Source: Candidatus Dormiibacterota bacterium (GTDB lineage: Bacteria; Chloroflexota; Dormibacteria; Aeolococcales; Bog-877). Taken from it: a stretch of 64,000 nucleotides of DNA. The DNA is taken from NCBI GenBank assembly GCA_049583555.1, contig JBAUWA010000095.1:6533-70532 (forward strand). The letters are read 5' to 3'. Shown piece after piece: positions 10,538 to 58,773 of this stretch (positions are counted from its first letter, which is position 1; the number at the start of each line of letters is the position of its first letter). The position numbers and the translations under genes were made by a program. A model generated the notes under the pieces. That model was not told where the DNA came from and ran no database searches. It saw only the letters and a program-made list of their open reading frames with translations.

Positions 10538-10596
10538 GAGACGCGCTCCTGCTTTACGCGGAACGCCGGGTGCGCCCGGATGGGAGGCAGCACACC

Positions 10597-11921: not shown

Positions 11922-11925
<4 letters not shown>
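10597..11925 (+). CDS. aceA: Isocitrate lyase AceA
   Basis: ICL signature [16 protein letters not shown] at 10597 has a GGGAGG SD 8 nt upstream. The ORF track gives an upstream alternative start at 10570. 442 aa. Confidence 0.95.
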
Positions 11926-13478
<1,553 letters not shown>

Positions 13479-39265: not shown

Positions 39266-40411
39266 GTGACAGCCTCGCTGATGCGTCGCTATGGCAACTT
39301 CGAACTGGCCGAGGACAGCACCCAGGAGGCCTGCGTCGAAGCGCTGAGGTCATGGCCGGCGAAGGGAATTCCCTCTCGCCCTGGGGCCTGGTTGCGAACG
39401 GTGGCCGAGCGTCGGGCTCTGGACCGTCTGCGCCGGGACCAGCGCTTCGCCGCCAAGGTCGGTGGGTTGCCCTTCACCGGACCCGAGTCCGGCGATGACC
39501 GCCTCAGCCTCATGTTCGCCTGCTGCCACCCCGCGCTATCGCGCGACGCCCAGGTGGCGCTTACCCTGCGCACGGTCGCCGGCCTCACCACCGCTCAAAT
39601 CGCCCGCGCCTTCCTCAGCTCAGAGGCCAGCGTCGCCCAGCGGATCACACGGGCCAAGCGCAAGATAGTCGACGCTGCCATCCCCTTCCGGATGCCAGCG
39701 CCCGCCGACCTTGAGGAGCGGGTTGCCGAGGTCCTCTCCGTCCTCTATCTGATGTTCAACGAGGGATACCTGGCCAGCGGCTGGGAGACGTCGCGGGATC
39801 GGTCACTGGCGGAGGACGCCACCTGGCTGGCGGGCCTGGTGGCGCAGGTGCTTCCCGCACAGGCGGAAGTGCTGGGGCTGCTGGCTCTGTTCAAGCTCCA
39901 GCTGGCCAGAATGGGGAGTCGGTTCACCGACGATGGCTCGATGGTGATGCTGGCGGACCAGGAGCGGTCGCAGTGGGACCACGATGCCATCCGCGAGGCG
40001 ACCAATCTATTGGAGCGGGCGGCGTCGTTAGACCGACCCGGCCCCTATCAACTGCAGGCGGCAATCGCCTCCTGCCACGCGACTGCAGCGTCGTGGTCGG
40101 CCACTGACTGGCGGCTTTTGGTCCGGCTCTACGATCGCCTAGTCCAGCTCCAGCCATCTCCGGTGGTCAGGCTCAACCGAGCGGTCGCGCTGTGGCACGT
40201 TGCTGGTGCAGAGGTGGCGCTGAGCGAGACTGAGGCGCTCATTCCAGATCTTCAGCGCTACCATCTGCTGCACAGCACACGCGCTGAATTGTTGCGAGAA
40301 CTTGGCCGGGAAAACGAAGCGCAAGCGGCATGGATCCTTGCTCTGACGCTCACACTAAATCCTGCCGAGCGTCGTCACATACGAGCCCGTGCCAAGGCCG
40401 CCGGAACGTAA
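39266..40411 (+). CDS. ECF-type RNA polymerase sigma factor with extended C-terminal domain
   Basis: Sigma-70 region 2 (TQEACVEALRSWP) and region 4 (LTTAQIARAFLSSEASVAQRITRAKRKI), followed by about 200 aa of helical extension. This matches the DGPF-associated sigma-factor class. Confidence 0.8.
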   Translation: MTASLMRRYGNFELAEDSTQEACVEALRSWPAKGIPSRPGAWLRTVAERRALDRLRRDQRFAAKVGGLPFTGPESGDDRLSLMFACCHPALSRDAQVALTLRTVAGLTTAQIARAFLSSEASVAQRITRAKRKIVDAAIPFRMPAPADLEERVAEVLSVLYLMFNEGYLASGWETSRDRSLAEDATWLAGLVAQVLPAQAEVLGLLALFKLQLARMGSRFTDDGSMVMLADQERSQWDHDAIREATNLLERAASLDRPGPYQLQAAIASCHATAASWSATDWRLLVRLYDRLVQLQPSPVVRLNRAVALWHVAGAEVALSETEALIPDLQRYHLLHSTRAELLRELGRENEAQAAWILALTLTLNPAERRHIRARAKAAGT

Positions 40412-40510
40412 TCTCTATCGACCCGGTGCGGCAGGTCGCTAAAGAAGCAGTGCCGTCGACGCTCGTGGATCGGCCGCCCCCGTGTTGGGAGTGCGTTAGG
40501 CTGCTTTCGA

Positions 40511-40585
40511 GCCGCCATGGCGCAGTGGTAGCGCAGGGGCCTTTTAAGCCCAGGGTCGCAGGTTCGAATCCTGCTGGCGGCACCA
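40511..40585 (+). tRNA. tRNA-Lys (anticodon UUU), CCA encoded
   Basis: Manual fold: 7-bp acceptor stem (GCCGCCA/TGGCGGC), D-arm GCGC/GCGC, anticodon loop CTTTTAA, T-arm GCAGG-TTCGAAT-CCTGC (identical to the E. coli tRNA-Lys T-arm), discriminator A, then CCA. One G-A mismatch at anticodon-stem pair 27-43. Confidence 0.9.
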
Positions 40586-40847
40586 ACGCGACTCCTGCAG
40601 CGGCGCCCGCGCCGGGACCCCGCATCAGCGTCGGGAAGTGCTGGTCTCTCCAGTCAGTGCGACTGTATGCCTCAGTGCGCCTAGAAGCGCAGCAGGTAGG
40701 CCGAACTATGATCTGGGTGATGCGAAGTTCACCCGCTAAGGGCCTGGTGGACGCCGCACTAGCCACCTGTCATAGAGAGTTGGCCGCCGGCTCGATCGCT
40801 GTGGAGGGAGAGCTCGGCCGGCGCGGAGGCGAGTCCTCGACACCAAC

Positions 40848-42476
40848 ATGATCCCTCGGGACCTCACGGCGCTGCCTAACCTGCTTCACCCCCGCGCCAG
40901 CGCCGGACCGGTGCGCAGTCGCCGACCTGCCTACGTCGACCTGATGCCGCCCTGCAATGCGGGTTGCCCGGCGGGCGAGAATATCCAGTCCTGGCTCGCC
41001 AGCGTCGAGGCTGGGAACCACGAGCAGGCGTGGCGTCAGCTAGTCACCGACAACCCCATGCCCGCCATTCATGGTCGGGTCTGTTATCACCCCTGCGAGA
41101 CCGTCTGCAACCGAGCCGAGCTCGACAGTGCAGTCTCGATCCATTCCGTGGAACGGTTCTTGGGTGATCTCGCTCTGGAGAAGGGATGGATCCTCGACCC
41201 GCCATCGCTGCGCAGTCACAAGCGGGTTCTGGTGATCGGTGCTGGGCCCAGCGGGCTGTCGGCCGCCTACCACCTGGCGCGCCTTGGTCACGAGGTCGAG
41301 ATTCGCGACGCCAGTCCCGAGTCAGGCGGGATGATGCGCTATGGCATCCCCGCCTACCGGCTGCCTCGTACGGTGCTGGCCGGGGAGTTGCAGCGGATCG
41401 CCGCGTTGGGCGTGCGGATGACCTCCGGACACCGTGTCACCAACCTCGACGAGGAGCGGCGCGAGGGCAACTTCGACGCCGTCTTTGTGGCAGTCGGGGC
41501 GCATCTTTCCAAGCACGTTGACATACCGGCCCGCGACGCTGGGCGACTGTTAGATGCGCTTGCGTTTCTGCGCAGCGTCGCATCCGGGGCGCCGCCGGTC
41601 ATCGGACGCCGCGTGGCCGTCTACGGCGGGGGCAACACTGCAATGGACGCCGCTCGCACGGCTCGACGCCTGGGTGCCGACGAAGCGGTCATCATCTATC
41701 GCCGGACCAGAGCTCAGATGCCCGCTCACGAGGAGGAGGCTCAGGAGGCCGAGCGCGAGGGCGTGAAGATCAACTGGCTTAGAACGATCACGGAGGTTCA
41801 GGGACCGGAGCTAACGGTAGAGGCGATGGAACTCGACGAAAAAGGCTTCCCCCAACCCACCGGGCGCTTCGAAAGTCTCGCCGCGGACACAGTGATTCTG
41901 GCCGTTGGCCAGGACGCCGACACCGCCTTTTTGAGGTCGGTGCCCGGGGTGGAGTTCACCCGGGACGGTACGGTGGTGGTGTCGGCCTCGATGATGACCG
42001 GCTGCCCGGGGTTGTTCGCCGGAGGCGACATGGTGCCAGCCGAGCGCACCGTGACGGTCGGCGTTGGTCATGGCAAGAAGGCCGCTCGGAACATCGATGC
42101 CTGGCTCCGTGGCGCCGACAGTTCGGTCGTCACCAAGCACGAACTGGCGAGCTTCGACCAGCTGCATCTCTGGTATTTCGGCGACGCGGCCCAGCGCCGC
42201 CAACCGGAGCTGGCACCCGAGGAGCGGATCGATACCTTCGCCGAAGTGGCCGGCGGCCTGACGGCCGAGGCGGCTAGCTACGAGTCGGCCCGCTGCCTTT
42301 CGTGCGGGAATTGCTTCGAGTGCGACGGCTGCCTCGGAGCCTGCCCCGAGGACGCGGTGATCAAGCTCGGCATCGGCAATCGCTATCGGTTCGACTACGA
42401 CCGCTGCACGGGTTGTGGCGTTTGCTTCGAGCAGTGTCCGGTGCATGCCATCGAGATGGTGGCGGAAGAAGGCTGA
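40848..42476 (+). CDS. GltD/PreT-like NAD(P)H-dependent FAD oxidoreductase with N-terminal [4Fe-4S] domain and fused C-terminal 2x[4Fe-4S] ferredoxin domain
   Basis: N-terminal Cys cluster (CNAGCPAG...CYHPCETVC) as in the glutamate synthase small subunit. Two Rossmann GxGxxG motifs (VIGAGPSGL and VYGGGNTAMD). The C-terminus carries CLSCGNCFECDGCLGACP and CTGCGVCFEQCP ferredoxin motifs. The stop overlaps the PFOR ATG (TGATG). Confidence 0.8.
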   Translation: MIPRDLTALPNLLHPRASAGPVRSRRPAYVDLMPPCNAGCPAGENIQSWLASVEAGNHEQAWRQLVTDNPMPAIHGRVCYHPCETVCNRAELDSAVSIHSVERFLGDLALEKGWILDPPSLRSHKRVLVIGAGPSGLSAAYHLARLGHEVEIRDASPESGGMMRYGIPAYRLPRTVLAGELQRIAALGVRMTSGHRVTNLDEERREGNFDAVFVAVGAHLSKHVDIPARDAGRLLDALAFLRSVASGAPPVIGRRVAVYGGGNTAMDAARTARRLGADEAVIIYRRTRAQMPAHEEEAQEAEREGVKINWLRTITEVQGPELTVEAMELDEKGFPQPTGRFESLAADTVILAVGQDADTAFLRSVPGVEFTRDGTVVVSASMMTGCPGLFAGGDMVPAERTVTVGVGHGKKAARNIDAWLRGADSSVVTKHELASFDQLHLWYFGDAAQRRQPELAPEERIDTFAEVAGGLTAEAASYESARCLSCGNCFECDGCLGACPEDAVIKLGIGNRYRFDYDRCTGCGVCFEQCPVHAIEMVAEEG

Positions 42477-45400
42477 TGGCCGCGACGCTAGACGGGAACG
42501 AGGCGACAGCCTCCGTCGCCTACCGGCTCAACGAGGTCTGCTGCATCTTCCCAATCACACCATCGTCGCCGATGGCCGAGCTGGCCGACGAGTGGTCGAG
42601 TCAGGGCCGAACCAACATCTGGGGCAGCGTGCCCGCAGTGATCGAGATGCAGAGTGAGGGAGGCGCCGCTGGTGCCCTGCACGGAGCTCTACAGGGAGGG
42701 GCTCTGTCGACGACCTTTACGGCCTCCCAGGGACTCTTGCTGATGATCCCCAACATGTACAAGATCGCCGGCGAGTTGACGCCCACCGTGTTCCACGTCG
42801 CGGCCCGTTCACTGGCCGCGCAGGCGCTTTCGATCTTCGGCGATCACTCTGATGTGATGGCGGTTCGCCAGACCGGCTTCGCCATGCTCGCTTCCTCATC
42901 AGTCCAGGAGACCCACGATATGGCGGCCGTGGCCCAGGCTGCCACGCTCAGGGCACGGATCCCCTTCGTCCACTTCTTCGACGGCTTCCGGACCTCACAT
43001 GAGCTCAACACAGTAGAGCTGCTTTCTGATGAAGACCTGGCCGCGCTGGTGCCCGACGAGCTGGTGCAGGCGCACCGCGGGCGGGCCCTCTCGCCAGAAC
43101 ATCCATTCATTCGCGGCACCTCCCAGAATCCCGATGTCTACTTCCAGGCGCGCGAGACGGTGAATCCTTTCTACGAGCGCACGCCCGGGATGGTGCAGGA
43201 CGCCATGGGCCACCTGGAAGAGCTCACCGGGCGGCCCTACCATCTCGTCGACTACTCCGGGCATCCGGAAGCGGAGCGCGTCCTCGTGGTGATGGGCTCC
43301 GGCGCCGAAACTGCGCGCGAGACCGTAGCCCACCTCGCCGGAAGGGGCGAGCGGGTGGGGGTAGTTACGGTCCGGCTCTACCGGCCATTCCCGGCCCAGG
43401 CGCTGCTTCGAGCACTGCCTCCCACCGCGGCACGGATCGCGGTCCTGGACCGAACCAAGGAGCCCGGCTCGTTCGGTGAGCCACTGTTCCTGGATGTTCT
43501 GGCCGCTTTGGCTGAGTCGCAGGCTGAGCGAGGATTTATGCCGCTCGTGACCGGCGGTCGCTACGGGCTCTCTTCCAAAGAGTTCACTCCGGGGATGGTG
43601 GCCGGAGTGTTCGAAGAGCTCGGGTTCGAGCGACCACGAAGCCGATTCACGGTTGGGATCAACGACGACGTCTCAGGCACCAGCATTGCCTATCAGGCGT
43701 CACTTGACATCGAGCCGCCAGAGACTCTGCGGGCGGTCTTCTTCGGTCTCGGTTCGGATGGGACCGTCAGCGCCAACAAGAACACGATCAAGATTCTTGG
43801 CACCGAGGGAGAGCTGTACGCACAGGGCTACTTCGTATATGACTCGAAGAAATCGGGCTCTCAGACTGTGTCGCACCTGCGCTTCGGCCCCCATCCGATC
43901 CGAGCACCATATCTTGTGAATCAGGCCAGTTTCATTGGCTGCCACCATTTCGAACTGCTCAAGCGGGTCGACATCCTGGAGTGCGCCGCGCCCGGCTCGA
44001 CCCTCTTGCTGAACTGTCCCCATCCTGCTGACGAAGTCTGGGACCTGCTAGCCCGTCCGATCCAAGAGCAGATAATCAGCAACTCGATCCAACTCTACGT
44101 AATCGATGCCGGACGAATCGCGCGCAAGTTCGGACTCGGTGAACGCATCAACACGGTGCTACAGACTTGCTTCTTTGCCATCTCCGGGGTACTGGAGCCG
44201 GACATAGCGATCTCCCGCATCAAGGCGGCCATTACCAAATCCTACGGGTCACGTGGGGCAAAGGTGGTCGAGGCCAACCTTCAAGCGGTGGATGTCGCCA
44301 TCGAAGGTCTGGAGCGCGTCCAGGTTCCCGCCGCGGCGACTGCTACGGCCGAGATGCCATCTCTGGTACCCGACAATGCACCCGAGTTCGTCCGCACGGT
44401 GACCGCCAAGATGATGGCCGGGCATGGCGACGAACTGCCGGTCAGTGCGCTTCCGCCAGACGGAACTTGGCCCAGTGGGACGGCGGCGTTCGAGAAACGC
44501 AATGTCTCCGATCTGGTGGCACTTTGGGATCCTGATTTATGCATCCAGTGCGGCAAATGCAGCTTTGTCTGCCCGCATAGCGTTATCAGGTCCAAGTACT
44601 ATCCCAAGTCCCTCCTGATGGAGACACCGGAGACCTTTCGCTCGGCACCGCTTTCGGCGCGAGGGCTGCCCGACACCGCCTTCACCTTGCAGGTGTACGC
44701 AGAGGACTGCACCGGGTGCGCATTGTGCGTCGAAGCCTGCCCGGTCTCGGCCCCTGATGACCCAGCGCACAAGGCCATCAACCTGGCACCGCGCGAGCCA
44801 TTGGCGACCATCGAGCGGGAGAACATCGCATTCTTCGAAACCCTGCCGGTCGTGGACCGAGCGCGTGTGGACTTCGGAACAGTTCGCGGGACTCAATTCC
44901 TTCAGCCTCTCTTTGAATTCTCTGGTGCCTGTGCCGGCTGCGGTGAGACCCCGTACCTGAAGCTGCTATCCCAACTATTCGGCGACCGGGCAACGATCGC
45001 CAACGCCACCGGTTGCTCATCAATCTACGGTGGGAATCTGCCAACCACACCCTGGACCACCAACCGCGAAGGCCGTGGTCCCGCCTGGTCGAACTCTCTC
45101 TTTGAGGACAACGCCGAGTTTGGACTGGGCTTGCGTCTGGCGGCCGACCGCCACGTCGCGCTGGCCCGCCGACGCCTTGGCCAACTGCGAAAGGAACTCG
45201 GCGCGGAGCTAGTCGATGCCATCCTCGAGGCACCGCAGCGTTCGGAGTCGGAATACCAGTCCCAGCGTGACCGGGTTGCCGAGTTGAGACGCAGGCTAGA
45301 ACACTTGACCGGGCCCGCGGCGCAAGACCTAACCAGTGTCGTTGACCAGCTGGTTCGCCGCAGCGTGTGGATCGTCGGCGGAGACGGCTGGGCATACGAC

Positions 45401-46039
45401 ATTGGCTCCGGTGGACTTGATCACGTCCTGGCCAGCGGTCAGGACGTGAATGTGCTGGTGCTGGACACCGAGGTCTATTCGAACACCGGAGGCCAGATGT
45501 CCAAGGCGACGCCGCTGGGGGCGGTCGCCAAGTTTGCTTCCGCAGGTAAGACTGCAGAGAAAAAAGACCTTGCGCTGCAGGCGATCGCGTACGGTACCGT
45601 CTACGTGGCCCGGGTCGCGATGGGTGCGGACCCCCAGCAGACCCTGCAGGCTTTTCGGGAGGCTGAGGCCTACGAGGGTCCATCGCTTCTGATCGCCTAC
45701 AGCCACTGCATCGCCCACGGCATCGAGATCCGCCGCGGGCTTGACCAGCAGTACCGGGCCGTGGCCAGTGGGATCTGGCCGCTACTACGCTACGACCCGA
45801 CGATTCGTGCCGCAGGCGGCAACCCGTTCTTGCTTGACTCACCCCGGCCCCACATTCCACTCACCAGCTATACACAACAGGAACTGCGCTACAGCACGCT
45901 GGCACACACCGATCCCGCCGAGGCTGAGCGTCTCGCTGGCCTCGCCCAGTCCTCGGTCCGTCTGCGCTGGGCGACGTATGAGGATATGGCGACCTGGCCC
46001 GCCCAGCGCTTCGCGAGCGATGCTCGCCGAGAGCGCTGA
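42476..46039 (+). CDS. Pyruvate:ferredoxin (flavodoxin) oxidoreductase, single-polypeptide NifJ/PFOR type (2-oxoacid specificity not established)
   Basis: 1187 aa with all PFOR domains in order, including the ferredoxin domain (CIQCGKCSFVCPHS, CTGCALCVEACP) and the TPP-binding domain (GGDGWAYDIGSGGLDH). ATG at 42476 overlaps the upstream stop. The ORF track extension from 42302 lies inside the previous gene. Confidence 0.9.
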   Translation: MAATLDGNEATASVAYRLNEVCCIFPITPSSPMAELADEWSSQGRTNIWGSVPAVIEMQSEGGAAGALHGALQGGALSTTFTASQGLLLMIPNMYKIAGELTPTVFHVAARSLAAQALSIFGDHSDVMAVRQTGFAMLASSSVQETHDMAAVAQAATLRARIPFVHFFDGFRTSHELNTVELLSDEDLAALVPDELVQAHRGRALSPEHPFIRGTSQNPDVYFQARETVNPFYERTPGMVQDAMGHLEELTGRPYHLVDYSGHPEAERVLVVMGSGAETARETVAHLAGRGERVGVVTVRLYRPFPAQALLRALPPTAARIAVLDRTKEPGSFGEPLFLDVLAALAESQAERGFMPLVTGGRYGLSSKEFTPGMVAGVFEELGFERPRSRFTVGINDDVSGTSIAYQASLDIEPPETLRAVFFGLGSDGTVSANKNTIKILGTEGELYAQGYFVYDSKKSGSQTVSHLRFGPHPIRAPYLVNQASFIGCHHFELLKRVDILECAAPGSTLLLNCPHPADEVWDLLARPIQEQIISNSIQLYVIDAGRIARKFGLGERINTVLQTCFFAISGVLEPDIAISRIKAAITKSYGSRGAKVVEANLQAVDVAIEGLERVQVPAAATATAEMPSLVPDNAPEFVRTVTAKMMAGHGDELPVSALPPDGTWPSGTAAFEKRNVSDLVALWDPDLCIQCGKCSFVCPHSVIRSKYYPKSLLMETPETFRSAPLSARGLPDTAFTLQVYAEDCTGCALCVEACPVSAPDDPAHKAINLAPREPLATIERENIAFFETLPVVDRARVDFGTVRGTQFLQPLFEFSGACAGCGETPYLKLLSQLFGDRATIANATGCSSIYGGNLPTTPWTTNREGRGPAWSNSLFEDNAEFGLGLRLAADRHVALARRRLGQLRKELGAELVDAILEAPQRSESEYQSQRDRVAELRRRLEHLTGPAAQDLTSVVDQLVRRSVWIVGGDGWAYDIGSGGLDHVLASGQDVNVLVLDTEVYSNTGGQMSKATPLGAVAKFASAGKTAEKKDLALQAIAYGTVYVARVAMGADPQQTLQAFREAEAYEGPSLLIAYSHCIAHGIEIRRGLDQQYRAVASGIWPLLRYDPTIRAAGGNPFLLDSPRPHIPLTSYTQQELRYSTLAHTDPAEAERLAGLAQSSVRLRWATYEDMATWPAQRFASDARRER

Positions 46040-47049
46040 TGGATCTTGCGACCGATTACATGGGACTGGCGCTCCGTAACCCCCTGGTTGCCTCAGCTTC
46101 TCCCATCTCCCACACCGTGGAGGGGGTACGTCGGCTCGCCGAGGGTGGTGTCGGGGCAGTGGTGCTCCACTCTCTCTTTGAAGAGGAGTTGGCCGAGGAG
46201 GCAGAACGTCAAGAACGTCTGGTGGAGGTTGGCAGCGAGAGCTTTGCCGAATCGCTGTCCTATTTCCCGGGCGTGGCGAACGCTCAGTTCGGCCCGCGCA
46301 ACTACCTCAGTCTGGTGGAGCGTTCGGCGGCCGCACTCGAAGTCCCGGTCATAGCCAGTCTCAATGGAGCCACCCCCAGCGGCTGGACCGGATATGCCCG
46401 GGCCATGCAGGATGCCGGGGCCGCCGCGATCGAACTCAACATCACCTATCTTCCGGCCGACAACAGAGTCTCAGGCAGCGATGTCGAGCAGCGCCATCTT
46501 GAGGTTCTTCAGCTGGTCAAGGCGTCGGTGAGCATCCCGGTTGCAGTCAAGCTCAGCCCCTACTTCAGCTCGATGGGAGAGATGGCTCGGAAGCTGGACG
46601 ACGCCGGCGCCAACGCCTTGGTGCTCTTCAACCGATTTCTCTATCCCGATATCGATTCAGAGTCCCTGGGCCTGGCTCCTGGCTTAGGACTCTCCAGGTC
46701 GTCGGAGGCCAGACTGCCCCGTGCCTGGATCGCGCTCCTCCACGGGCGAGTCAGTTGCGCCCTGGCTGCCACCACGGGTGTGGAAGCTCCGGAGGACGTC
46801 GCCAGTTACCTGCTTGCCGGTGCCGACGTGGTCATGACCACCTCCGCGCTGCTCCGCCACGGACCCGAGCATGCCAAGGTGCTGCTCGGCGGCCTGTCCG
46901 CTTGGATGAACCGCAAAGGCTTCGCAAACGTCGGTGCCCTGCGCGGAAAGCTTGCGGTCGGGTCCCAAGGGGATCAGGCAGCGCAGGCCCGAGCTGGTTA
47001 TGTTGCGGCCCTGCGTGCAGCCAACGCGGCCCCGTATGGGCCCTGGTGA
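46039..47049 (+). CDS. Dihydroorotate dehydrogenase-like (PyrD/PreA-family TIM barrel) protein lacking the catalytic S/C-P-N motif
   Basis: 336-aa class-1 DHOD-like fold (NPLVASASP..., AIELNITYLP, VAVKLSPY). The catalytic Cys/Ser motif seen in the genuine pyrD at 52460 (ELNISCPN) is replaced by ELNITYLPA. ATG overlaps the PFOR stop (TGATG). Confidence 0.75.
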   Translation: MDLATDYMGLALRNPLVASASPISHTVEGVRRLAEGGVGAVVLHSLFEEELAEEAERQERLVEVGSESFAESLSYFPGVANAQFGPRNYLSLVERSAAALEVPVIASLNGATPSGWTGYARAMQDAGAAAIELNITYLPADNRVSGSDVEQRHLEVLQLVKASVSIPVAVKLSPYFSSMGEMARKLDDAGANALVLFNRFLYPDIDSESLGLAPGLGLSRSSEARLPRAWIALLHGRVSCALAATTGVEAPEDVASYLLAGADVVMTTSALLRHGPEHAKVLLGGLSAWMNRKGFANVGALRGKLAVGSQGDQAAQARAGYVAALRAANAAPYGPW

Positions 47050-47183
47050 GGCCGCCGACCTTCCGCTCTAGCTGTCGGTGAGCGGTTGGTACGTTCCGGC
47101 GCCCTCAGCTCAAAGAGATCTCCGACTCTCTCGGCGCGCCAGCGGGTTTCATCCGGTGAATACTGCCGGCGCAGGGGGTTGCG

Positions 47184-47678
47184 TCAGTCGCCGGGTACGG
47201 CCTCCTGGAACTGGAAGCCCCAGTCTGGACCTCCGCACCAAGCGCAAGCCACCGGTGGATAGGTGCCCCGCTCCGCAATACCGCACCGGCCGCACACCCA
47301 CTGGTGCTGACAGAGGTATGTAACTAGCCTTCTTCGCGAGACCCGGCCCACCAGTTTGCCGTGGCAGACTACCAGAAGCGACGACAGGCGCTGCTTGAAC
47401 AACAGCTCCGCCGCCTCCGAAATGGGACGCCCTTCGTCGATCGTCCGCGTTGGGCCTGTCATGACCTCTGCCACGGTGCGGCCGCGCTGGCCGCGCAAGC
47501 TGGCCTCACCCACACTTCCCACCACTTCCATGTAGTTGTTGACAACTGGAAGATTGGTGAGGTGGTCCCGCCGCAACTCACTTGCGGCACTCAGTGCGCT
47601 GGCCGAAGCGTTGACAGCGACCACGTCGTGGCTCATCATCGCCCAAACCCTTGGTGACCTGGTTGGGCTTGCGCTCAC
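47184..47678 (-). CDS. CBS-pair domain protein with C-terminal zinc ribbon
   Basis: Two CBS motifs (VVAVNASASALSAASELRRDHLTNLPVV, GRPISEAAELLFKQRLSSLLVV) followed by CGRCG...CAWCG. The real start is probably the internal Met at about 47639. Confidence 0.65.
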   Translation of the reverse strand: MSASPTRSPRVWAMMSHDVVAVNASASALSAASELRRDHLTNLPVVNNYMEVVGSVGEASLRGQRGRTVAEVMTGPTRTIDEGRPISEAAELLFKQRLSSLLVVCHGKLVGRVSRRRLVTYLCQHQWVCGRCGIAERGTYPPVACAWCGGPDWGFQFQEAVPGD

Positions 47679-47978
47679 AACCTATCCTCCTAGGCGACCA
47701 TCACATCGGGTGGGGGACCACCCTGGGCCTCAGCCTAGGAGGTGGTTGGACGCGCGAACACCGTGAAATCGCTCGCTGCGCGACCGTGGAACCACTCGGG
47801 CGGAGGAGTCTGACCAGACCCTCGCGTGGAATTGCCCCCCCAGTAGCTGGGTGGAATCACCCCTGTCCTCTTGAGAGGAACGCTCGTAGCAGGGCAGTAC
47901 GGGCCGTCCGAACATGTAGCTAGGCACTTGATCAAGGCTCAAAAGTAGGTGGAGCGAGCGTTTCAAGGAGGTAGGTTT

Positions 47979-48479
47979 ATGACACGTTGGGACCCGTGGA
48001 GTGACATGTTCAATCTGGAGGGTGAGTTGACGCGCCTCGTCAACGAAAGTTACGGCCCAGAGGTCGCATATGGCCGCGGCGCTTTGCCGGCTCTCCTCCC
48101 TCTAGACATCCGCCAGACCGAAGGTGAGTTCGTGCTCGAGGCTTCGGTTCCAGGTTTCTCTCCCCAAGAGGTCGAGCTGACATGGGACGAGGGCATCCTC
48201 ACCATTAGAGGCGAGAAGAAGACCGAGACTGAATATGAGGGTCGCTACCTACGCCGCGAGCGCAGGCAGCAGTCGTTCTGGCGTCAGCTGACACTCCCTC
48301 ACGAAGTCAAGTACGATCAGATCAGCGCCGTCTTCACCAACGGTGTACTGACCATCCGTATCCCCCGGGTAGCGGCTCCTGCGCCGAAGAAGATCCCAGT
48401 GGGGATCAGTGCCGCCAAGCCAGGGCTAGAGGCATCGGTGACGCCGACCGAGCCAGCAGCGCTGGCAGCCCAGAGCTGA
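47979..48479 (+). CDS. Hsp20/alpha-crystallin family small heat shock protein
   Basis: Alpha-crystallin domain (FVLEASVPGFSPQEVELTWDEGILTIRGEK, LTLPHEVKYDQISAVFTNGVLTIRIPR). ATG at 47979 has an AAGGAGG SD. A Rho-independent terminator follows. Confidence 0.9.
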   Translation: MTRWDPWSDMFNLEGELTRLVNESYGPEVAYGRGALPALLPLDIRQTEGEFVLEASVPGFSPQEVELTWDEGILTIRGEKKTETEYEGRYLRRERRQQSFWRQLTLPHEVKYDQISAVFTNGVLTIRIPRVAAPAPKKIPVGISAAKPGLEASVTPTEPAALAAQS

Positions 48480-52459: not shown

Positions 52460-53428
52460 TCAGCCCGCTTCTGGGTCGGGCTCCTCCGCTCCGGGATGAT
52501 CGAACTCCTGCCAGCGCAGCTCGGAGAAGCGCTGCAGTTGGTGTTGCGCTCCGTAGGCCAGGCAGCCCGCAACGATCTCTTTGCTCACACCCGGGTTGTT
52601 GAAGTTCGCCGTCCCCACCTGGATGGCGTCTGCTCCCGCCACCATGAACTCGAGGGCGTCGGCGGTGGTGGCAATGCCACCGATTCCGATCAGTGGGATG
52701 GCCACCGCCCGGCGCACCTTGGCCACCGCCGCCAGGGCCAGGGGTTTGACCGCCGGGCCGCTGAGTCCACCCAGGCCCGCACCCGGTAGCACCGGACCGT
52801 GGCGCTCTAGCGAGATCTTCATTCCCACGTAGGTGTTCACCGCGGACAGCGCATCCGCTCCGGCATCCTCCACTGCCCTTGCCACCTCGGCAATGTCGGT
52901 GACATTGGGACTCAGCTTGACCACCAGCGGCAGGGTCGTAGCCGCCCGGACTGCCGCGACGCAGCGGGCAGCGGCACCGGGCTCGGTGGCAAAGTCGAGT
53001 CCGTGAGCGATGTTGGGGCAGGAGATGTTCAACTCCACCCCGGAGACACCAGCAACGCCGTCTAGGCGCAGGACAACCTCGACGTACTCCTTGATGTCGG
53101 CGCCGGCGACGTTGACGATCACCGGCACTGACCAAGCGGCCCAGCGGGGGGCGTAGTCGCTTGCCACTACCTCGACCCCGGGGTTTTGGAGCCCGATGGA
53201 GTTGAGCATTCCGGCCGCCGTCTCCGCGATCCGGGGAGGACGGTTGCCCTCCCGGGGCTGCGCCGTGGTTCCCTTGGAGAAGATCGCACCCAGATGGCTT
53301 ATCCCGGCCATCTCCTCTGCCTCGAACCCGAATCCAAAAGTTCCCGAGGCCACGCCGACCGGATTGGCCAGGACCAGCCCCCGTCCTAAGTCGACGCGGG
53401 GGTCAAGCTCCGAACTGAGGGCGCTCAT
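52460..53428 (-). CDS. pyrD: Dihydroorotate dehydrogenase, class 1B catalytic subunit PyrD
   Basis: Class-1 DHOD with the catalytic Cys motif ELNISCPN, plus VKLSPN and IGIGGI. ATG at 53428 overlaps the pyrK stop (ATGA). The ORF extension to 53581 overlaps pyrK. Confidence 0.9.
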   Translation of the reverse strand: MSALSSELDPRVDLGRGLVLANPVGVASGTFGFGFEAEEMAGISHLGAIFSKGTTAQPREGNRPPRIAETAAGMLNSIGLQNPGVEVVASDYAPRWAAWSVPVIVNVAGADIKEYVEVVLRLDGVAGVSGVELNISCPNIAHGLDFATEPGAAARCVAAVRAATTLPLVVKLSPNVTDIAEVARAVEDAGADALSAVNTYVGMKISLERHGPVLPGAGLGGLSGPAVKPLALAAVAKVRRAVAIPLIGIGGIATTADALEFMVAGADAIQVGTANFNNPGVSKEIVAGCLAYGAQHQLQRFSELRWQEFDHPGAEEPDPEAG

Positions 53429-54318
53429 TCCAGGTGAGCGGGCTGGGTGAGCAATCGCTCCCAGTCCAGCATCGAGGCAAGGAATACGGGGCCCTGACGG
53501 CAGCAGAGTCCTAGGACGGGGTGGTCGCCATCGATATCGCCCACCGGGACGGCGCATCCCAGGCAGGTGCCGAACCCACAACCCATGGGCGCTTCGATGG
53601 AGACCTCGAGCGCCGGTGCGGTCGCCAGCCGGCCGGAAAGGTCGGCGAGGGATCTAAAAACCGCCGCCAGCATCTGATTGGGCCCGCAGGCGTAGGCACG
53701 TTGCGCTTGGCTGAGATGAGAGGCAAGTCCCACCGTGACGCGCCCCAAAATTCCGGAGCTGCCGTCCTCGGTGAGGCGGATCATCTGGTCTACCCCCGGG
53801 GGTACGAGTTCTTGGGGATAGAGCTCAGTAGCAGTCCTGGCGCCGTTGATCCATACCACCTGCTCACCGCGATCCAGGAGCACCTGAGTGAGGAGCGGAA
53901 AGGGGGCTGCACCCAGTCCACCCGAGATCAGCACCGACCGCCCAGGGCGGTCCGGCAGGGTGAACCCTTGGCCCAATGGCCCCAGGATCCTCGCCGGCAT
54001 ACCAGGCGCGAATCGCTGCAGGCGCCGGCTGCCCTCGCCCACCGCGCCCACGTAGAAGGAAACCTCGCCAGTCTCCGGGTCCGTACGGCTGAAGGAGAAG
54101 GGTCGGCGCAGCAGTGGGATGTGACTCTCCTCCACCCAGATCTGGGCGAACTCCCCAGGTTGGGCTCGGCGGGAGATCTCGGGCGCGCAGAAGGAGATCT
54201 GAAAAAGGTTCCCCTCCAGGGGCAGCACCGAGGTGCACTCGACCTGCTCATCCACCGCTCGGGACAGCCGGCTCTCGCCGATTAGACGCTTGGCGGACAG
54301 GCTGGCCAGCTGAGTCAC
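53425..54318 (-). CDS. pyrK: Dihydroorotate dehydrogenase electron-transfer subunit PyrK
   Basis: FNR-like FAD/NAD domain plus a C-terminal [2Fe-2S] Cys cluster (CGFGTCLGCAV...C). Translationally coupled on both sides (carB stop to pyrK start, pyrK stop to pyrD start). Confidence 0.9.
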   Translation of the reverse strand: MTQLASLSAKRLIGESRLSRAVDEQVECTSVLPLEGNLFQISFCAPEISRRAQPGEFAQIWVEESHIPLLRRPFSFSRTDPETGEVSFYVGAVGEGSRRLQRFAPGMPARILGPLGQGFTLPDRPGRSVLISGGLGAAPFPLLTQVLLDRGEQVVWINGARTATELYPQELVPPGVDQMIRLTEDGSSGILGRVTVGLASHLSQAQRAYACGPNQMLAAVFRSLADLSGRLATAPALEVSIEAPMGCGFGTCLGCAVPVGDIDGDHPVLGLCCRQGPVFLASMLDWERLLTQPAHLE

Positions 54319-57300
54319 GGCGCCACCTGGCGGAGGCTGCCCTGGCGGTGTTCACCAATAGTCGCGACCTCGACCACGCCGCCGCCGCCGCTTTCCAGAG
54401 CGGCCACTAGGGCGGCGGCAGTCTCGAGTGAGGTGAGGCAGGGTATGCCCCTCTGCACTGCGGCCTGACGGATGCGGTAGCCGTCTCGAACCGGTCGCCG
54501 GCCGCCCCAGTCTTCGCCATCCGGTTCCAGCTCATCGGTCCCGGTGCCCGAGATGGTATTGATGACCAGCTCGACCTGGCCGGCCACGGTGACGTCGAGG
54601 ACGTTGGGCCGGCCGGAGTGGAGCTTGCTGACCTCGACCACACTGATTCCCGCTTGGCGGAGAGCCGCTGCAGTGCCCGGAGTGGCGTAGAGACGAAAGC
54701 CCAACTCGGCCAGTCGGGCGGCGATCGGCAGACCCTCGGCCTTGTCCTGATCGGCGATGCTGACCAGCGCTCCACCCCGGCGAGGTAGGCTGCCCAGGGC
54801 GGCCCAGAACGCCTTCTCGAGTGCCTCCGGGAGCGACGGTGCCACCCCGATCACCTCCCCGGTGGAGGTCATTTCTGGCCCCAGGACGCTGTCGACCTGG
54901 TCGAGTTTGCGCGCCGAAAATACCGGGGCCTTGACCGCAACCAGAGGTGGCGGTGGCAGCAATCCCACCGCCAGGTGACGTGATTGCAAGGACTCGCCGA
55001 GCATGGCTCCGACCGCGGTGTCCACCATTGCCACCCCGGTCACCTTGCTCAGGAAGGGAACGGTCCGGCTTGCCCGGGGGTTCACCTCGATTACCAGGAC
55101 CTGCCCTCGGTGGACCACGTACTGGACGTTGATCAGGCCCACCGTGCTGGTGCCCAGCGCCAGCTCGGCGGTGATCCTGACTAGATCGGCGATGGCGGTC
55201 GGGTCGAGCCGCTGCGGCGGAAAGACCGCCATCGAGTCCCCGGAGTGGACGCCGGCCCTCTCGATGTGCTCCATGACGCCGGGAACCAGCACCTGCTCGC
55301 CGTCGCAGATGGCGTCGACCTCAACCTCCATCCCCAGGATGTACTTGTCGATCAGCACCTCGCCGCCAGCGTCGCCCGAGGCCAGCAGGGCGTCGCCCAG
55401 ATACAGCCGCAGCTCTTGCAGCGAGTGAACCACGTCCATGGCCCGACCACCCAGGACGTAAGAGGGCCGCACCAGCACCGGGTAGCCCACCCGGTCGGCG
55501 ATCCGCTCCGCCTCCTCGGGGTCGCGAGTGGCGGCCCCGGGGGGACGGGCGATGCCTAGGCGCTGGAGCAAGGCCTCGAAGCGCCCGCGATCTTCGGCCA
55601 TCTCGATGGAGGCTGCTGCCGAGCCCAGCAGGGGCACCCCCAGGTGGTGGAGCTGTCCAGCCAGGTTGACTGCGGTCTGGCCGCCGAACTGGACCATGAC
55701 TCCCCGGGGCCGCTCCACCGAGCAGACCTGGAGCACCGACTCCAGGTCCACCGGCTCGAAGTAGAGCCGGGAGCTGCAGTCGAAGTCGGTGGACACCGTT
55801 TCCGGGTTGCTGTTGATCATCACTGCCTCCAGGCCCCGGCGCTGGAGAGCCGCTGCCGCCTGAACCGAGCAGTAGTCAAACTCGATGCCCTGCCCGATCC
55901 TGATCGGGCCCGACCCCAGCACCACCGCAGACCCCGCGCCTCCCCTCTGCTCGTCCTCAATCTCGAAGCTGGAGTAGAAGTAGGGGGTGGTGGCGTCGAA
56001 CTCAGCCGCGCAGGTGTCGACGCACTTGAAGGTGGGGAGGACCCCAGTCCGGGTGCGCTCCTCCTCCACCTGAGCCGGAGCTCGTTCGGTGAGCTGGGCG
56101 ATCCTTCGGTCGGAGAGGCCGGAGCGTTTGGCCAGACGAAGGAGGGCCACCGGGAGCTCACCACCGGCCGCCTTCGCGAGGTCCGCCTCTAGGCCGGCCA
56201 GGTCGCCCAGGCGATCGCAGAACCACTGCGGGTAGCCGGTGCGGCGCGCGACGGTGGCGGCGTCCTCGCCGCGCGCCAGCGCCTCGAGCACCGCCTGCAG
56301 CCGAAGATCGGTGGGTTCCTCCAAACGCTCCGTCGCTCGCCGCAGCGCCGATGGCTCGGGCGCAACCTGCTCCAGCGAGCGCAGCACCTTGCTGATCGCC
56401 GACTCGAAGGTTCTGCCAATGGCCATCGCCTCGCCGGTTGACTTCATCTGGGTGCCCAGCCGCCGGTCGCCGTGGGGGAACTTGTCGAATGGCCAGCGGG
56501 GCGACTTGGCGACGCAGTAATCCAGGCTGGGCTCAAAGGCCGCGCAGGTGCGGCCGGTGACCTGGTTGCGAATCTCCCTGAGCCGCCGACCCACCGCGAT
56601 CTTGGCCGCCACCCGTGCGATCGGGTAGCCGGTGGCTTTGGAGGCCAGGGCTGAGGAGCGGCTCACCCTAGGGTTGACCTCGATCACGAAGTAAGTGAAG
56701 GAGTCGGGCGCAAGCGCGAACTGGACGTTGCAGCCGCCCTCGATCTTGAGTGACCGAATGATGCGGAGCGCGGCCGAGCGCAGCTGCTGGTGCTCTTTAT
56801 CGGTGAGGGTCTGGCTGGGAGCAACCACCAGGGAGTCCCCGGTGTGGACTCCCATCGGGTCGAGGTTCTCCATGTTGCAGACACAGATGCAGGTGTCGTC
56901 GCCGTCTCGCATCACCTCGTACTCCAGCTCCCGCCAGCCCACCAGCGCCTGCTCCACCAGCACCTGAGTGATGGGGCTGACCTGGAGCCCGCGAGCCACC
57001 ACCTGCTCCAGCTCCTCCAGACTGTGGACAAGGCCACCACCCGTGCCTCCCAGGGTGAAGGCGGGCCGGACCACTAGCGGCAACCCCACCTCGAGGGCAA
57101 AGGAGGTGGCTTCTGACACGCTGTTGACGGTCCGGGAGGGGGGTACGGGCTCCCCGATCGAGATCATTCTTCGCTTGAAGCGCTCACGGTCTTCGGCGTC
57201 GCGCACCGCCTCCAGCGGAGTCCCCAACACCCGCACCTGGTATTGCTCAAGCACTCCGGCCTCGTCGAGAGCCACGGCCAGATTCAGAGCCGTTTGCCCT

Positions 57301-58773
57301 CCTAGGCCGGCGAGAAGTCCGTCGGGACGTTCCCGCGCTATCACCTTGCTCAGGACCTCTACGGTCAGCGGCTCCAGGTAGACCCGGTCGGCAACCTCCT
57401 CGTCGGTCATGATGGTGGCGGGGTTGCTGTTGACCAGCACCACCTCCATGCCCTCCTCGCGGAGAGCCCGGCAGGCCTGGGTTCCCGCGTAGTCGAACTC
57501 GGCAGCCTGTCCGATCACAATCGGCCCACTGCCCAGAACCAGCACCCGGCGGATCGATCCTCTATCAGGAGCTGAGGTCGGGACCCGATGCCGGTTATCC
57601 CCGCGCCCAGTCCGGCTCAGGTCCAGGAACTCGTCGAAAAGATGCTGGCGATCTTGAGGTCCAGGACTGCCCTCGGGGTGGTACTGCACTGATATCACCG
57701 GGAGTTGGTGGTGTCGCAGCCCCTCCACCGAGTCGTCGTTGAGGTTGCGCTCGGAAACGATCCAGCCGCTCTCCACAACGATGCTCTGGGCATCTACCTG
57801 GAATTCGTGGTTTTGGGGGGTCACGAAGACCTCGCCAGTGACCAGGTCCGCCACCGGGTGGTTGCCCCCGTGATGCCCGAAGGGAAGGCGACTGGTGGTT
57901 CCCCCGATCGCCCTTCCCACCAGCTGGTGGCCCAGGCAGATGGCGAGGATGGGATAGCGCTCCAAGAGGCCTTTGACCAGCTCGACCTGGGCGGTGAGGC
58001 TGGCGGGGTCGCCGGGTCCGTTGCTGAGGAAGACCCCGTCCGGGTGGAGGTCTGCGATCTCATCGAGGGTGGCCGAATGGGGCAGAACCCAAACCTCGGC
58101 GCCCCGACTGACCAGCGAGCGCAGGGCGTTGCGCTTCACCCCCAGGTCTAGCACGGCGATGCGTAACCCCTCCCCGCTGGCGCGCTGTCCGGCCCCCCGG
58201 CGCAGGGCCGGATGGAGCGGCTCCAGCCAGCGCCTGGTCTGAGTCGAGGAGACTGCGGCGACCAGATCCTGCTCCGAGACTGAGGGCGAGCGCCGCGCTA
58301 GCTCCGCCAGTTCCCCCACGGATCCGGCGCTGGTGGGCGCCATTACCCCACGCAAGGTCCCGTGGTCCCGCAGATGTCGGGTCAGCGCTCTGGTGTCCAC
58401 CCCCTCCAGGCCGGGCACACCCTGGTCCTCGAGCCAGGCTCCAAAAGTCGACTGAGCCTGCCAGTGGGGTGAGGTCGGACTGCACTCGGCGACGATCACC
58501 CCCCGGCAGAAGGCGCGGTCCGACTCCATATCCACTTCAGCCGCCCCGACATTTCCGATCAGAGGCTGGGTGAAGACCAGCAGTTGCCCGGCATACGAGG
58601 GGTCGGTGCAGACCTCCTGATACCCGGTCATGCAGGTGTTGAAGACCACCTCCCCCAAGCCCAGCTGCGAACCGACCGCGGGCTTGGCGCCGATCCAGGT
58701 TCCTGAGAAGGACGCGCCCGACTCCAGAACCAGTCGTCCCTCCTCCCCCTGCCCCCGACTGCTCAGAACCAAC
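54315..58773 (-). CDS. carAB: Carbamoyl-phosphate synthase: carA (small, glutaminase) and carB (large) read as one continuous in-frame ORF
   Basis: The CarA part (RLVLESGASFSG... ICLGHQL ... YHPEGSPGP) runs directly into CarB (…RVLVLGSGPIVIGQAAEFDYAGTQA…) with no stop and no canonical start in the linker of about 10 aa. CarB shows both ATP-grasp halves and the MGS-like domain. The likely start is a TTG at about 58772, immediately after the pyrC stop. The ORF extension to 58997 overlaps pyrC. Confidence 0.85.

Follow-up and report, generated by a model that had tools for sequence, protein, structure and literature searches.

A pyruvate:ferredoxin oxidoreductase operon of Candidatus Dormiibacterota with two separable partner genes, a DsrL-like iron-sulfur flavoprotein and a dihydroorotate dehydrogenase-like protein

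We analysed a stretch of 64,000 nucleotides from a Candidatus Dormiibacterota bacterium (GenBank assembly GCA_049583555.1, contig JBAUWA010000095.1, positions 6,533 to 70,532; hereafter the window), which carries a three-gene operon built around a single-chain pyruvate:ferredoxin oxidoreductase (PFOR). The PFOR gene (g2) is preceded by a gene for an iron-sulfur flavoprotein (g1) and followed by a gene for a dihydroorotate dehydrogenase (DHOD)-like protein (g3). The most valuable result is the near-obligate pairing of PFOR with the DHOD-like protein across phyla, which corrects a widespread mis-annotation: the g3 family is routinely mislabelled 'dihydroorotate dehydrogenase (fumarate)'. For the operon itself, we propose a PFOR with two separate dedicated redox partners, in which g1 would provide an NADP(H) route and g3 would act as a PFOR accessory, and we give this proposal an even chance of being correct. 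A first-pass annotation, made from the sequence alone, had interpreted g1 and g3 as the two parts of a split PreT/PreA-type electron-transfer module flanking the PFOR; taken as a whole, that interpretation was partly supported.

The g3 family is large and diverse, as about 900 clusters (50% identity) were recovered at E <= 1e-30 among 1.84 billion cluster representatives. When eight distant members, 42-50% identical to g3, were looked up, a single-chain PFOR ended 14-91 nt before the DHOD-like gene in all eight, without g1. The look-ups included metagenome-assembled genomes labelled Omnitrophota, Verrucomicrobiia, Bacteroidota and Paceibacterota, as well as a protein that is also reported in the cyanobacterium Trichormus variabilis. 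An independent metagenome scan found the PFOR C-terminus directly upstream of the g3 homolog, on the same strand, in 69 of the 73 loci with at least 300 bp of upstream sequence. Only one of the 25 metagenome loci with at least 5.4 kb upstream carried a distant GltD-like gene there (35% identity). In that locus (L169, 1263-2549) the similarity to g1 covered aa 34-436 and left the C-terminal ferredoxin part unmatched, and it may represent an independent recruitment of an NADP module. The converse arrangement was found in Aeromonas caviae, where a g1 homolog (59%) stands directly before a PFOR gene (62%) and no g3 occurs within 4 kb downstream (L182, 2337-7540); this 4.9-Mb record is filed as a plasmid but is evidently a mislabelled chromosome, and it is almost unannotated. 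There are also exceptions: the g3 homologs of Bacteroides finegoldii, Methylocella tundrae and Acaryochloris are encoded at a distance from PFOR, and the PFOR genes of E. coli, Sporomusa, Fusobacterium, Listeria and Azospirillum have no partner beside them. The adjacency statistics argue for a direct functional tie between g3 and PFOR. The two partners are separable, so that g3 is a PFOR partner in its own right and not the missing half of g1, and the split PreT/PreA module was not supported.

Among closer relatives, the three genes were found together. A genome scan with one genome per species yielded 531 genomes with a g3 relative, and the best 80 loci were analysed; nearly all of them came from Actinomycetota, among them Mycobacterium, Nocardia, Propionibacteriaceae, Solirubrobacterales, Gaiellaceae and Acidimicrobiia. 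The order g1-g2-g3 on one strand was present in 65 of the 68 related loci having at least 5.3 kb upstream, an arrangement far beyond chance, with identities to the window proteins of 63-81% for g1, 66-80% for g2 and 55-74% for g3. The co-occurrence of the three families that the first-pass annotation had suggested checking thus exists in these relatives, but PFOR and g3 almost always lack g1 in the distant phyla. Both junctions in the window are TGATG stop/start overlaps, which were read directly in the sequence where the first-pass annotation had placed them. In the 66 loci with all three genes, the g1/g2 junction was a 1- or 4-nt overlap in 39 (1 nt in 38) and the g2/g3 junction in 54 (1 nt in 43, 4 nt in 11), which sustains the earlier view of one translationally coupled operon. 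The pairwise-distance matrices of the three proteins agreed (r = 0.91-0.94); this congruence is not evidence of physical interaction, because shared species history alone would produce the same. Clustering of the neighbours in 77 actinobacterial-type and 88 distant loci revealed no conserved fourth gene, as no neighbour recurred in over 9 loci. Annotated copies of the trio were also met on large plasmids of two Alphaproteobacteria, Methylovirgula sp. HY1 (pHY1) and Phenylobacterium zucineum, suggesting horizontal transfer of the operon as a unit. One of these plasmid copies adjoins IS elements and toxin-antitoxin genes, the other a zinc alcohol dehydrogenase and a type II glyceraldehyde-3-phosphate dehydrogenase.

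Profile hidden Markov model searches returned the expected domains in all three proteins. g2 contained PF01855, PF17147, PF01558, PF10371, two Fer4 domains and PF02775, in the order POR_N, PFOR_II, POR, EKR, 2x[4Fe-4S] and thiamine diphosphate (TPP) domain. It scored 1693.5 bits against TIGR02176, the NifJ/YdbK type (equivalog cut-off 911; positions 3-1166 of 1167), 1315 bits against the Moorella PFOR 6cin_A (residues 3-1172) and 1210 bits against 1b0p_A over its whole length. Judged by these matches, g2 is a canonical single-chain pyruvate:ferredoxin (flavodoxin) oxidoreductase, in agreement with the complete NifJ-type enzyme called at first. Its 2x[4Fe-4S] domain is what we take, from published PFOR structures, to be the usual electron exit. 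The longest g2 reading frame opens at a GTG at 42302, inside g1 (42302-42475), so that a gene caller could add 58 aa; alignment to the solved PFORs supports the ATG at 42476 as the start.

The third protein has an unusual profile. In Pfam, g3 matched PF01180 alone and weakly (44.8 bits), and it reached 431.7 bits against NF005741 (PRK07565), 'dihydroorotate dehydrogenase-like protein' (cut-off 303; positions 2-331 of 335). Its one cysteine, Cys240, is non-conserved and lies outside any Fe-S motif, and no Fe-S domain is present. The first-pass annotation had described a PyrD/PreA-fold barrel that lacks both the ferredoxin domain and the catalytic Cys, and this was correct: ELNITYLP in g3 corresponds to ELNISCPN in the window's genuine pyrD. 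The position of the catalytic Cys/Ser is Tyr or Phe across the g3 family. Relative to DHOD A of L. lactis, the residues aligned to Lys164, Asn127 and, by alignment reading, Asn193 are kept, whereas Cys130 is changed to Tyr/Phe, Lys43 to His/Tyr, and the Asn67-Asn72 pyrimidine loop is replaced. In 111 diverse representatives, conservation was at least 90% at Ser45, Phe47, Glu49, Asn109, Trp116, Glu132, Asn134, Glu150, Lys171 (100%), Phe197, Asn198, Arg199, Ser219, Trp230, Gly247, Gly261 and Arg318.

An AlphaFold2 model of g3 gave a confident TIM barrel (pLDDT 84.6), in which the family-specific segment was poorly modelled (aa 67-84 below 50). The FMN domain of pig dihydropyrimidine dehydrogenase (DPD) was its best fold match, with DHOD B and DHOD A next; sequence identities were 16-20% (Foldseek E about 1e-15, TM about 0.67). 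PDB sequence and profile searches found no solved structure closer to g3 than DHOD B/A (profile E about 1e-19). From Lys171, Asn134, Asn198, Gly247, Gly261 and the barrel fold, we infer that g3 binds FMN. PreA was rejected as an identity for g3 (NF006183 at 79.9 bits against a cut-off of 335, positions 3-201 of 422; Tyr137 for Cys; no C-terminal 2x[4Fe-4S] domain), and so was PyrD of class 1 or 2 (NF005574 at 83 against 269, TIGR01037 at 78 against 270; NSxGxxN loop absent). The first-pass annotation had termed g3 catalytically degenerate, which is the wrong word because the family is strongly conserved and has invariant residues of its own. From its sequence g3 looks re-purposed rather than decayed, and it is probably an FMN barrel that has lost the pyrimidine chemistry and gained something else. 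Since the window holds its own pyrD, a PyrK-type subunit and a carbamoyl-phosphate synthase, the genome needs no g3 for pyrimidine synthesis. A seeming natural fusion of the PFOR C-terminal TPP domain with the DHOD-like protein (P0053, 562 aa, from a 38-kb ENA contig) was set aside: the PFOR and g3 frames differ in the window, and the joined product is probably due to a frameshift or to faulty gene calling.

g1 contained PF14691 (Fer4_20, aa 34-113), PF07992 (126-409) and a Fer4 dicluster (488-537), and scored 763.5 bits against NF009410 (PRK12771; cut-off 516; model positions 27-566 of 566). Conservation of its N-terminal residues in 60 orthologs indicates that the start codon is correct. The Fer4_20 match begins at profile position 30, so the usual N-terminal leader is absent there, and a stretch resembling the NfnB leader follows the Rossmann domains. 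The same post-Rossmann placing was seen in StnC-like chains and in a relative from Aromatoleum. All 15 Fe-S cysteines are invariant in the 60 orthologs (five in Fer4_20, two in the RCLSC motif and eight at the C-terminus). They are predicted to hold four [4Fe-4S] clusters, with Cys483 and Cys486 probably completing the distal Fer4_20 cluster. The YRR motif, also invariant, holds the 2'-phosphate of NADP(H) in NfnB and marks NADP(H) preference in NfnB and DsrL (PMC7596348). On the FAD side, Arg171, equivalent to Arg201 of P. furiosus NfnB (PfNfnB), is likewise invariant. His294 takes the place of Arg333 of PfNfnB, which is proposed to support bifurcation (PMC12221290). g1 thus has the Fer4_20 and FAD/NADP module of NfnB with YRR, but not its Arg at position 333. 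The placing of nfnA directly upstream that is used to recognise NfnB (PMC12221290) was not found either, the tRNA and an extracytoplasmic function (ECF) sigma factor gene being there.

The closest PDB matches to g1 were StnC-like chains and NfnB (9bov_A, 8oh5_C, 5jca_L, 4ylf_B), and by sequence g1 is nearer to NfnB, StnC and DsrL than to PreT or GltD. The GltD/PreT architecture with an additional ferredoxin domain, as first described, therefore stands for the FAD/NAD(P) fold and the C-terminal 2x[4Fe-4S] domain but not for the family placement. GltD was rejected (TIGR01318 at 229 against a cut-off of 483, TIGR01317 at 184 against 448), and no gltB partner was found in the window, whose only GltB-sized reading frame is the carbamoyl-phosphate synthase gene. 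The alternative that g1 and g3 are ordinary GltD and pyrD paralogs was checked by homology, and both proteins fell below the family cut-offs.

Comparison with known systems places g1 in a recurrent design. The alpha subunit of the 2-oxoglutarate:NADP+ oxidoreductase (KGOR) of Azoarcus evansii has been placed in the GltD/NfnB/DsrL group (PMC10134865). As is proposed for the trio, a 2-oxoacid:acceptor oxidoreductase is coupled there to a flavoprotein of this group that reduces NADP+. A relative in Aromatoleum aromaticum EbN1 (plasmid 2, 595 aa) is 31% identical to g1 over residues 21-537 and shares its full architecture, with the truncated Fer4_20, the Rossmann domains, a post-Rossmann 'EAERCLNC' and the C-terminal dicluster; its gene overlaps korA of a KorA/KorB-type 2-oxoacid oxidoreductase by 4 nt. 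These systems differ from the trio in having a two-subunit KorAB-type partner for 2-oxoglutarate, not a single-chain PFOR, and no DHOD-like third gene; moreover, the Aromatoleum protein lacks the YRR motif of g1. On an Enterococcus faecalis plasmid (L183, 3505-9829), genes for a flavodoxin, an NfnA-like protein, an NfnB-like protein ('gltA') and nifJ stand in a row beside selenium-cofactor genes, so that PFOR is wired to NAD(P) by another arrangement. For NfnB-like proteins that stand alone, a role as ferredoxin:NADP+ oxidoreductases (FNORs) has been proven; the Cac_0764 type resembles g1 in being NfnB-like, without an nfnA neighbour and with a residue other than Arg at 333, and reduces NADP+ with PFOR-derived electrons (PMC12221290). 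It differs in using free ferredoxin, lacking a C-terminal ferredoxin domain and not being encoded beside PFOR. Together with the KorAB, KGOR and Enterococcus cases, these enzymes make the combination of an NfnB-type NADP reductase with a 2-oxoacid oxidoreductase a design that has been characterised at least once. The earlier statement that no characterised enzyme has this composition is valid for the trio, but the Azoarcus KGOR is a precedent for the g1-like coupling. As a system, the operon is probably of the 2-oxoacid:ferredoxin oxidoreductase-plus-NADP-reductase kind, but with a single-chain PFOR core and an extra partner.

DsrL offers the closest architectural parallel to g1, with an N-terminal 2x[4Fe-4S] domain, FAD with an embedded NAD(P) domain, a linker and a C-terminal 2x[4Fe-4S] ferredoxin domain; the YRR of g1 occurs in its NADP-preferring type, and DsrL exchanges electrons directly with a large Fe-S enzyme, the dissimilatory sulfite reductase (PMC7596348). 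In contrast to g1, its partner is DsrAB and its linker is about 100 aa long (about 60 in g1). As defined by its authors, DsrL does not include genes that are 'immediately linked with' those of pyruvate/ketoisovalerate oxidoreductases (PMC7596348), and g1, which overlaps the PFOR gene, falls outside this definition; this explicit exclusion indicates that DsrL-like genes beside 2-oxoacid oxidoreductases had already been seen. NfnB and StnC share with g1 the Fer4_20 and FAD/NADP module, the arginine at position 171 and YRR, whereas g1 has no NfnA, StnA or StnB partner, carries an invariant His for Arg333 and an extra ferredoxin domain, and gives no evidence of bifurcation. DPD and class 1 DHOD share with g3 the TIM-barrel fold and the residues aligned to Lys164, Asn127 and Asn193 of DHOD A, and g1 and g3 together hold all five DPD domains. 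However, three of their features are absent from g3, namely the catalytic Cys/Ser, the Asn loop that binds the pyrimidine and the ferredoxin domain of PreA, and g3 has PFOR as its partner instead of PreT or PyrK. The pyruvate:NADP+ oxidoreductase (PNO) of Euglena and Cryptosporidium passes PFOR electrons to NADP+ through a flavin, the same overall reaction as proposed for the trio, and consists of a PFOR fused to a cytochrome-P450-reductase-like FMN/FAD module. The modules of the trio differ, being separate genes of unrelated families; g2 ends after the TPP domain, and Pfam detected no flavodoxin- or FNR-type domain, and hence no PNO-type fusion, in the three proteins.

The gene cluster was known before, in Propionibacterium (2020, PMC7650540) and as the Synechocystis nifJ operon, and the window adds a new member from Dormibacterota; each trio gene has its own NCBI family. 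In Synechocystis, nifJ (sll0741), sll0743 and sll0744 ('dihydroorotate dehydrogenase (fumarate)') belong to one transcription unit, the micro-oxically induced operon sll0741-sll0744 (PMC11368403). This operon and the nifJ1 cluster of P. freudenreichii contain the same gene families in the same order as the trio, although in Synechocystis g1 is absent and a further small gene separates nifJ from the DHOD-like gene. The Propionibacterium genes are co-transcribed and co-regulated, and knockout of the trio's PFOR, whose expression rises on sugars and which is linked to the formation of acetate, cripples growth (PMC7650540). Both studies describe the cluster without functional tests of the partner proteins (PMC11368403, PMC7650540).

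In the arrangement that we propose, g1 would be an NADP(H):acceptor oxidoreductase of the DsrL/KGOR-alpha type. Its C-terminal ferredoxin domain would take single electrons from the exit cluster of PFOR and pass them along the four [4Fe-4S] clusters to FAD, which would reduce NADP+. The net reaction would be pyruvate + CoA + NADP+ -> acetyl-CoA + CO2 + NADPH, with no need for free ferredoxin. The pyruvate couple lies at about -500 mV and NADPH at about -320 mV, and the reaction would thus run towards NADPH. A preference of g1 for NADP is suggested by the invariant YRR. The KorAB coupling in Aromatoleum and the NfnA-like/NfnB-like genes before nifJ in Enterococcus show that flavoproteins of the g1 type recur beside 2-oxoacid oxidoreductases. 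On sequence and analogy, this pyruvate-to-NADP+ route is the best-supported reading of the g1-PFOR part. The 2-oxoacid:NAD(P)+ oxidoreductase inferred at first is thereby the most plausible function for those two proteins, but g3 need not form part of that wire. g3 would be neither a dihydroorotate nor a dihydropyrimidine dehydrogenase but a probable FMN barrel that travels with the single-chain PFOR whether or not g1 is present. It would most likely bind PFOR and act at or near the electron exit, possibly as a flavin acceptor or gate, as a reductase of some other substrate that would employ the ferredoxin-like domain of PFOR in trans, in the way PreA employs its own, or as a factor that protects PFOR in oxygen-exposed cells. 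In this last respect, the Synechocystis PFOR is air-stable and needs anoxia for activity in vitro, yet it is used aerobically in vivo (PMC8887894).

Several observations speak against this proposal. The PFORs with a g3 partner showed no distinctive insertion or surface signature when 56 of them were compared with a small sample of 7 without an adjacent one (from E. coli, Sporomusa, Fusobacterium, Listeria, Bacteroides, Azospirillum and Acaryochloris); the comparison turned up no more than 4 discriminating columns and two indels of a single residue, and thus no docking site on PFOR is evident. g1 could simply use free ferredoxin, as the Cac_0764-type enzymes do, without any complex. A barrel without an Fe-S cluster is not needed for a wire from PFOR through g1 to NADP+, which leaves the role of g3 vague, and FMN binding by g3 is read from a few aligned residues, with His/Tyr in place of Lys43 of DHOD A. 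Nor does His294 exclude bifurcation, because bifurcating StnC enzymes carry Glu at that position. In the literature searched, neither biochemical nor structural work was found on the trio, on sll0744 or on the PRK07565 family, and for that family no functional study was found either.

Alternatively, the three products could be co-regulated but independent, with no stable complex: PFOR would reduce free ferredoxin or flavodoxin, g1 would be a soluble FNOR, and g3 would be either an unrelated FMN enzyme acting on some small molecule or a factor that protects or repairs PFOR so that it keeps working in cells exposed to oxygen. NfnB-like FNORs that stand alone are known (PMC12221290), PFOR bears no partner-specific signature, g3 homologs occur away from PFOR in Bacteroides, Methylocella and Acaryochloris, and the in-vivo use of the Synechocystis enzyme in air would fit a protective g3. 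Aerobes and oxygenic phototrophs are frequent among the hosts of the pair. However, g3-PFOR adjacency of about 95% and overlapping stop and start codons are tighter than usual for co-regulation, the ferredoxin domain tethered on g1 makes a free ferredoxin shuttle unnecessary, and DsrL, by analogy, acts directly on its partner enzyme (PMC7596348), so we consider independence unlikely. A complex of quite another kind, an Nfn-like bifurcating complex with quinol, was proposed for Propionibacterium (McCubbin et al. 2020, PMC7650540). The FAD of g1 would then be a bifurcating site at which low-potential electrons from PFOR meet higher-potential ones that enter at the FMN of g3 (donated by a quinol, by lactate or by some other compound), so that two NAD(P)+ are reduced, or the process runs backwards. 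The homology of g1 to the bifurcating subunits NfnB and StnC, the presence of a second flavoprotein in the operon and a true NfnA-like/NfnB-like pair before nifJ in Enterococcus favour such confurcation, and direct transfer from pyruvate to NADP+ wastes about 180 mV (by textbook midpoint potentials). In g3, however, no Fe-S cluster is available to connect its flavin with the FAD of g1, and the protein opens with the first strand of the barrel, without a membrane or quinone-binding extension. The Arg333 position is an invariant His in g1, no nfnA-like gene is adjacent, and the three-part machine is not a conserved unit, as most lineages have g3-PFOR without g1 and Aeromonas has g1-PFOR without g3; confurcation is therefore rather improbable.

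A split DPD-type wire, running NAD(P)H - FAD - 2x[4Fe-4S] - 2x[4Fe-4S] - FMN, into which PFOR would plug with g3 as an obligatory station between PFOR and g1, is more doubtful still. It draws on the five DPD domains within g1 and g3, on the DPD FMN domain being the best fold match of g3, and on the length of g3, which is that of PreA minus the ferredoxin domain, in line with the partial PreA profile match. Yet the metagenome loci with PFOR-g3 but no g1, with a distant GltD-like gene in a single long locus, and the Aeromonas g1-PFOR pair contradict an obligatory station; g1-like proteins couple to KorAB-type enzymes without g3, and g1 is far below the PreT/GltD-type cut-offs and nearer to NfnB and StnC. 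A reversed operation as an NADPH-driven pyruvate synthase, by reductive carboxylation of acetyl-CoA, which the first-pass annotation had also raised, is highly improbable. PFOR is reversible in principle, but no result supports this direction directly, and by textbook values pyruvate synthesis (about -500 mV) is out of reach for NADPH (about -320 mV) unless energy is coupled in, for which the operon encodes no module (Rnf, Fix, NfnA). The Propionibacterium PFOR responds to sugars and is tied to acetate formation (PMC7650540), and the Synechocystis operon is fermentative (PMC11368403). Finally, g3 could be a previously unrecognised, near-universal PFOR accessory flavoprotein that docks on the PFOR ferredoxin-like domain as the PreA barrel does on its own, and that in the trio, with g1, might form a new, flavin-based confurcating pyruvate dehydrogenase. 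We regard this as conceivable, though on the unlikely side. If true, PFOR and g3 would make up a 'pyruvate-driven PreA-like reductase', or g3 would be a gate or safety valve at the electron exit, and its docking could explain how PFOR functions in aerobes and oxygenic phototrophs.

The operon consists of exactly three genes, as it is bounded by the ECF sigma factor gene and the tRNA-Lys upstream and by a convergent CBS-domain gene downstream (47184-47678, minus strand). The tRNA-Lys, announced at about 260 bp upstream of g1, lies 262 bp before it, with the ECF sigma factor gene upstream of the tRNA. A promoter and terminator scan of 40300-47700 gave nothing above shuffled expectation. The coordinates of the features are given in Table 1.

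Table 1. Features of the operon and its surroundings (window coordinates, except for the last five rows, which give positions in the respective loci)
Feature	Coordinates	Strand	Remarks
tRNA-Lys (anticodon UUU)	40511-40585	+	ARAGORN; upstream boundary, context rather than part of the system
g1	40848-42476	+	542 aa; NCBIfam NF009410 'NAD(P)-binding protein'; DsrL/KGOR-alpha-like iron-sulfur flavoprotein
g1 Fer4_20 domain, aa 34-113	40947-41186	+	Invariant Cys36, 40, 79, 83, 87
g1 FAD and NAD(P) Rossmann domains, aa 126-409	41223-42074	+	PF07992 at 121 bits
g1 YRR motif, Tyr284-Arg285-Arg286	41697-41705	+	Invariant in 60/60 orthologs
g1 His294	41727-41729	+	Aligned to Arg333 of P. furiosus NfnB (5jca_L); His in 60/60 orthologs
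g1 NfnB leader-like stretch, aa 452-486	42201-42305	+	ER..F.EV....EA.RCLSC; after the Rossmann domains; Cys483, Cys486 invariant
g1 C-terminal ferredoxin domain	42306-42458	+	Two CxxCxxCxxxCP motifs; Cys489/492/495/499 and Cys520/523/526/530, all invariant
g1/g2 stop/start overlap TGATG	42474-42478	+	1 base common to stop and start
g2	42476-46039	+	1187 aa from ATG; single-chain pyruvate:ferredoxin (flavodoxin) oxidoreductase
g2 ferredoxin-like 2x[4Fe-4S] domain, aa 681-759	44516-44752	+	Pfam
g2 TPP-binding domain, aa 961-1072	45356-45691	+	PF02775
g2/g3 stop/start overlap TGATG	46037-46041	+	1 base common to stop and start
g3	46039-47049	+	336 aa; NCBIfam NF005741; PFOR-associated DHOD-like TIM-barrel protein
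g3 family-specific acidic segment, aa 45-85	46171-46293	+	Opens with invariant S-L-F-E-E; replaces the DHOD pyrimidine-binding loop
g3 ELNITYLP, aa 132-139	46432-46455	+	Asn134 kept; catalytic Cys/Ser position is Tyr137
g3 Lys171	46549-46551	+	Aligns with FMN-binding Lys164 of L. lactis DHOD A
Genuine class 1B pyrD	52460-53428	-	ELNISCPN; 5 kb downstream of the operon
PyrK-type Fe-S/FAD subunit gene, pyrD operon	53425-54318	-	Only PyrK/NfnA-like gene within the window
1560-aa reading frame with carbamoyl-phosphate synthase small-chain/GATase and large-chain domains	54315-58997	-	Apparent carA-carB fusion
Hydrogenase-gene look-up, L085	9036-15510		
Hydrogenase-gene look-up, L086	1219-4340		
Hydrogenase-gene look-up, L087	1-640		
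Hydrogenase-gene look-up, L090	1668-4316		
Hydrogenase-gene look-up, L092	1748-4327		

In other phyla, the PFOR/DHOD-like pair often stands beside genes for a bidirectional [NiFe] hydrogenase (HoxEFUYH) or the maturation genes hypC/hypF. Hydrogenase or hyp genes were found near the pair in 5 of the 8 look-ups, in 4 of 22 long metagenome loci and in 10 of 72 actinobacterial-type loci. A reading frame that resembles NAD(P)-malic enzyme by sequence followed the pair in 9 metagenome loci (e.g. L105, 3735-5408), 58 loci having more than 1.5 kb of downstream DNA, and it could possibly supply pyruvate to the pair. Neighbours of the actinobacterial-type loci, as read from their sequences, included a GAF sensor kinase, a NarL-type response regulator, a wax-ester/triacylglycerol synthase and an Acg-like nitroreductase, in 4-6 loci each. 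In the window, an HSP20 gene (47949-48479, plus strand) lies just past the operon and the CBS-domain gene. The CBS, HSP20, sensor kinase, regulator, wax-ester/triacylglycerol synthase and nitroreductase neighbours together recall the mycobacterial DosR hypoxia/dormancy regulon. Elsewhere in the window, isocitrate lyase and malate synthase genes of the glyoxylate shunt overlap by 4 nt (10570-13478, plus strand), a radical-SAM protein with a CofH/MqnC C-terminal region, probably F420 (FO) synthase, is encoded at 14418-16445 (plus strand), and the remaining left half holds purine-synthesis and other housekeeping genes.

PFOR occupies a central place in the carbon metabolism of anaerobic and fermenting cells and is normally thought to feed free ferredoxin or flavodoxin. 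In a sizeable set of bacteria, among them environmental mycobacteria, Nocardia, propionibacteria, Dormibacterota and some Proteobacteria, a tethered module predicted to reduce NADP is encoded in direct coupling with PFOR. If g1 works as proposed, it would give the bacteria that carry the trio, most of which are regarded as aerobes, a ferredoxin-independent source of NADPH and acetyl-CoA from pyruvate. The mis-annotation of the g3 family places a spurious pyrimidine enzyme into metabolic models. The DHOD-like family follows PFOR across many phyla and includes the model organisms Synechocystis (sll0744) and Propionibacterium. The role of g3 can be tested with the genetic systems that exist for these organisms, and it could account for the use of an oxygen-sensitive enzyme by cells that live in air.

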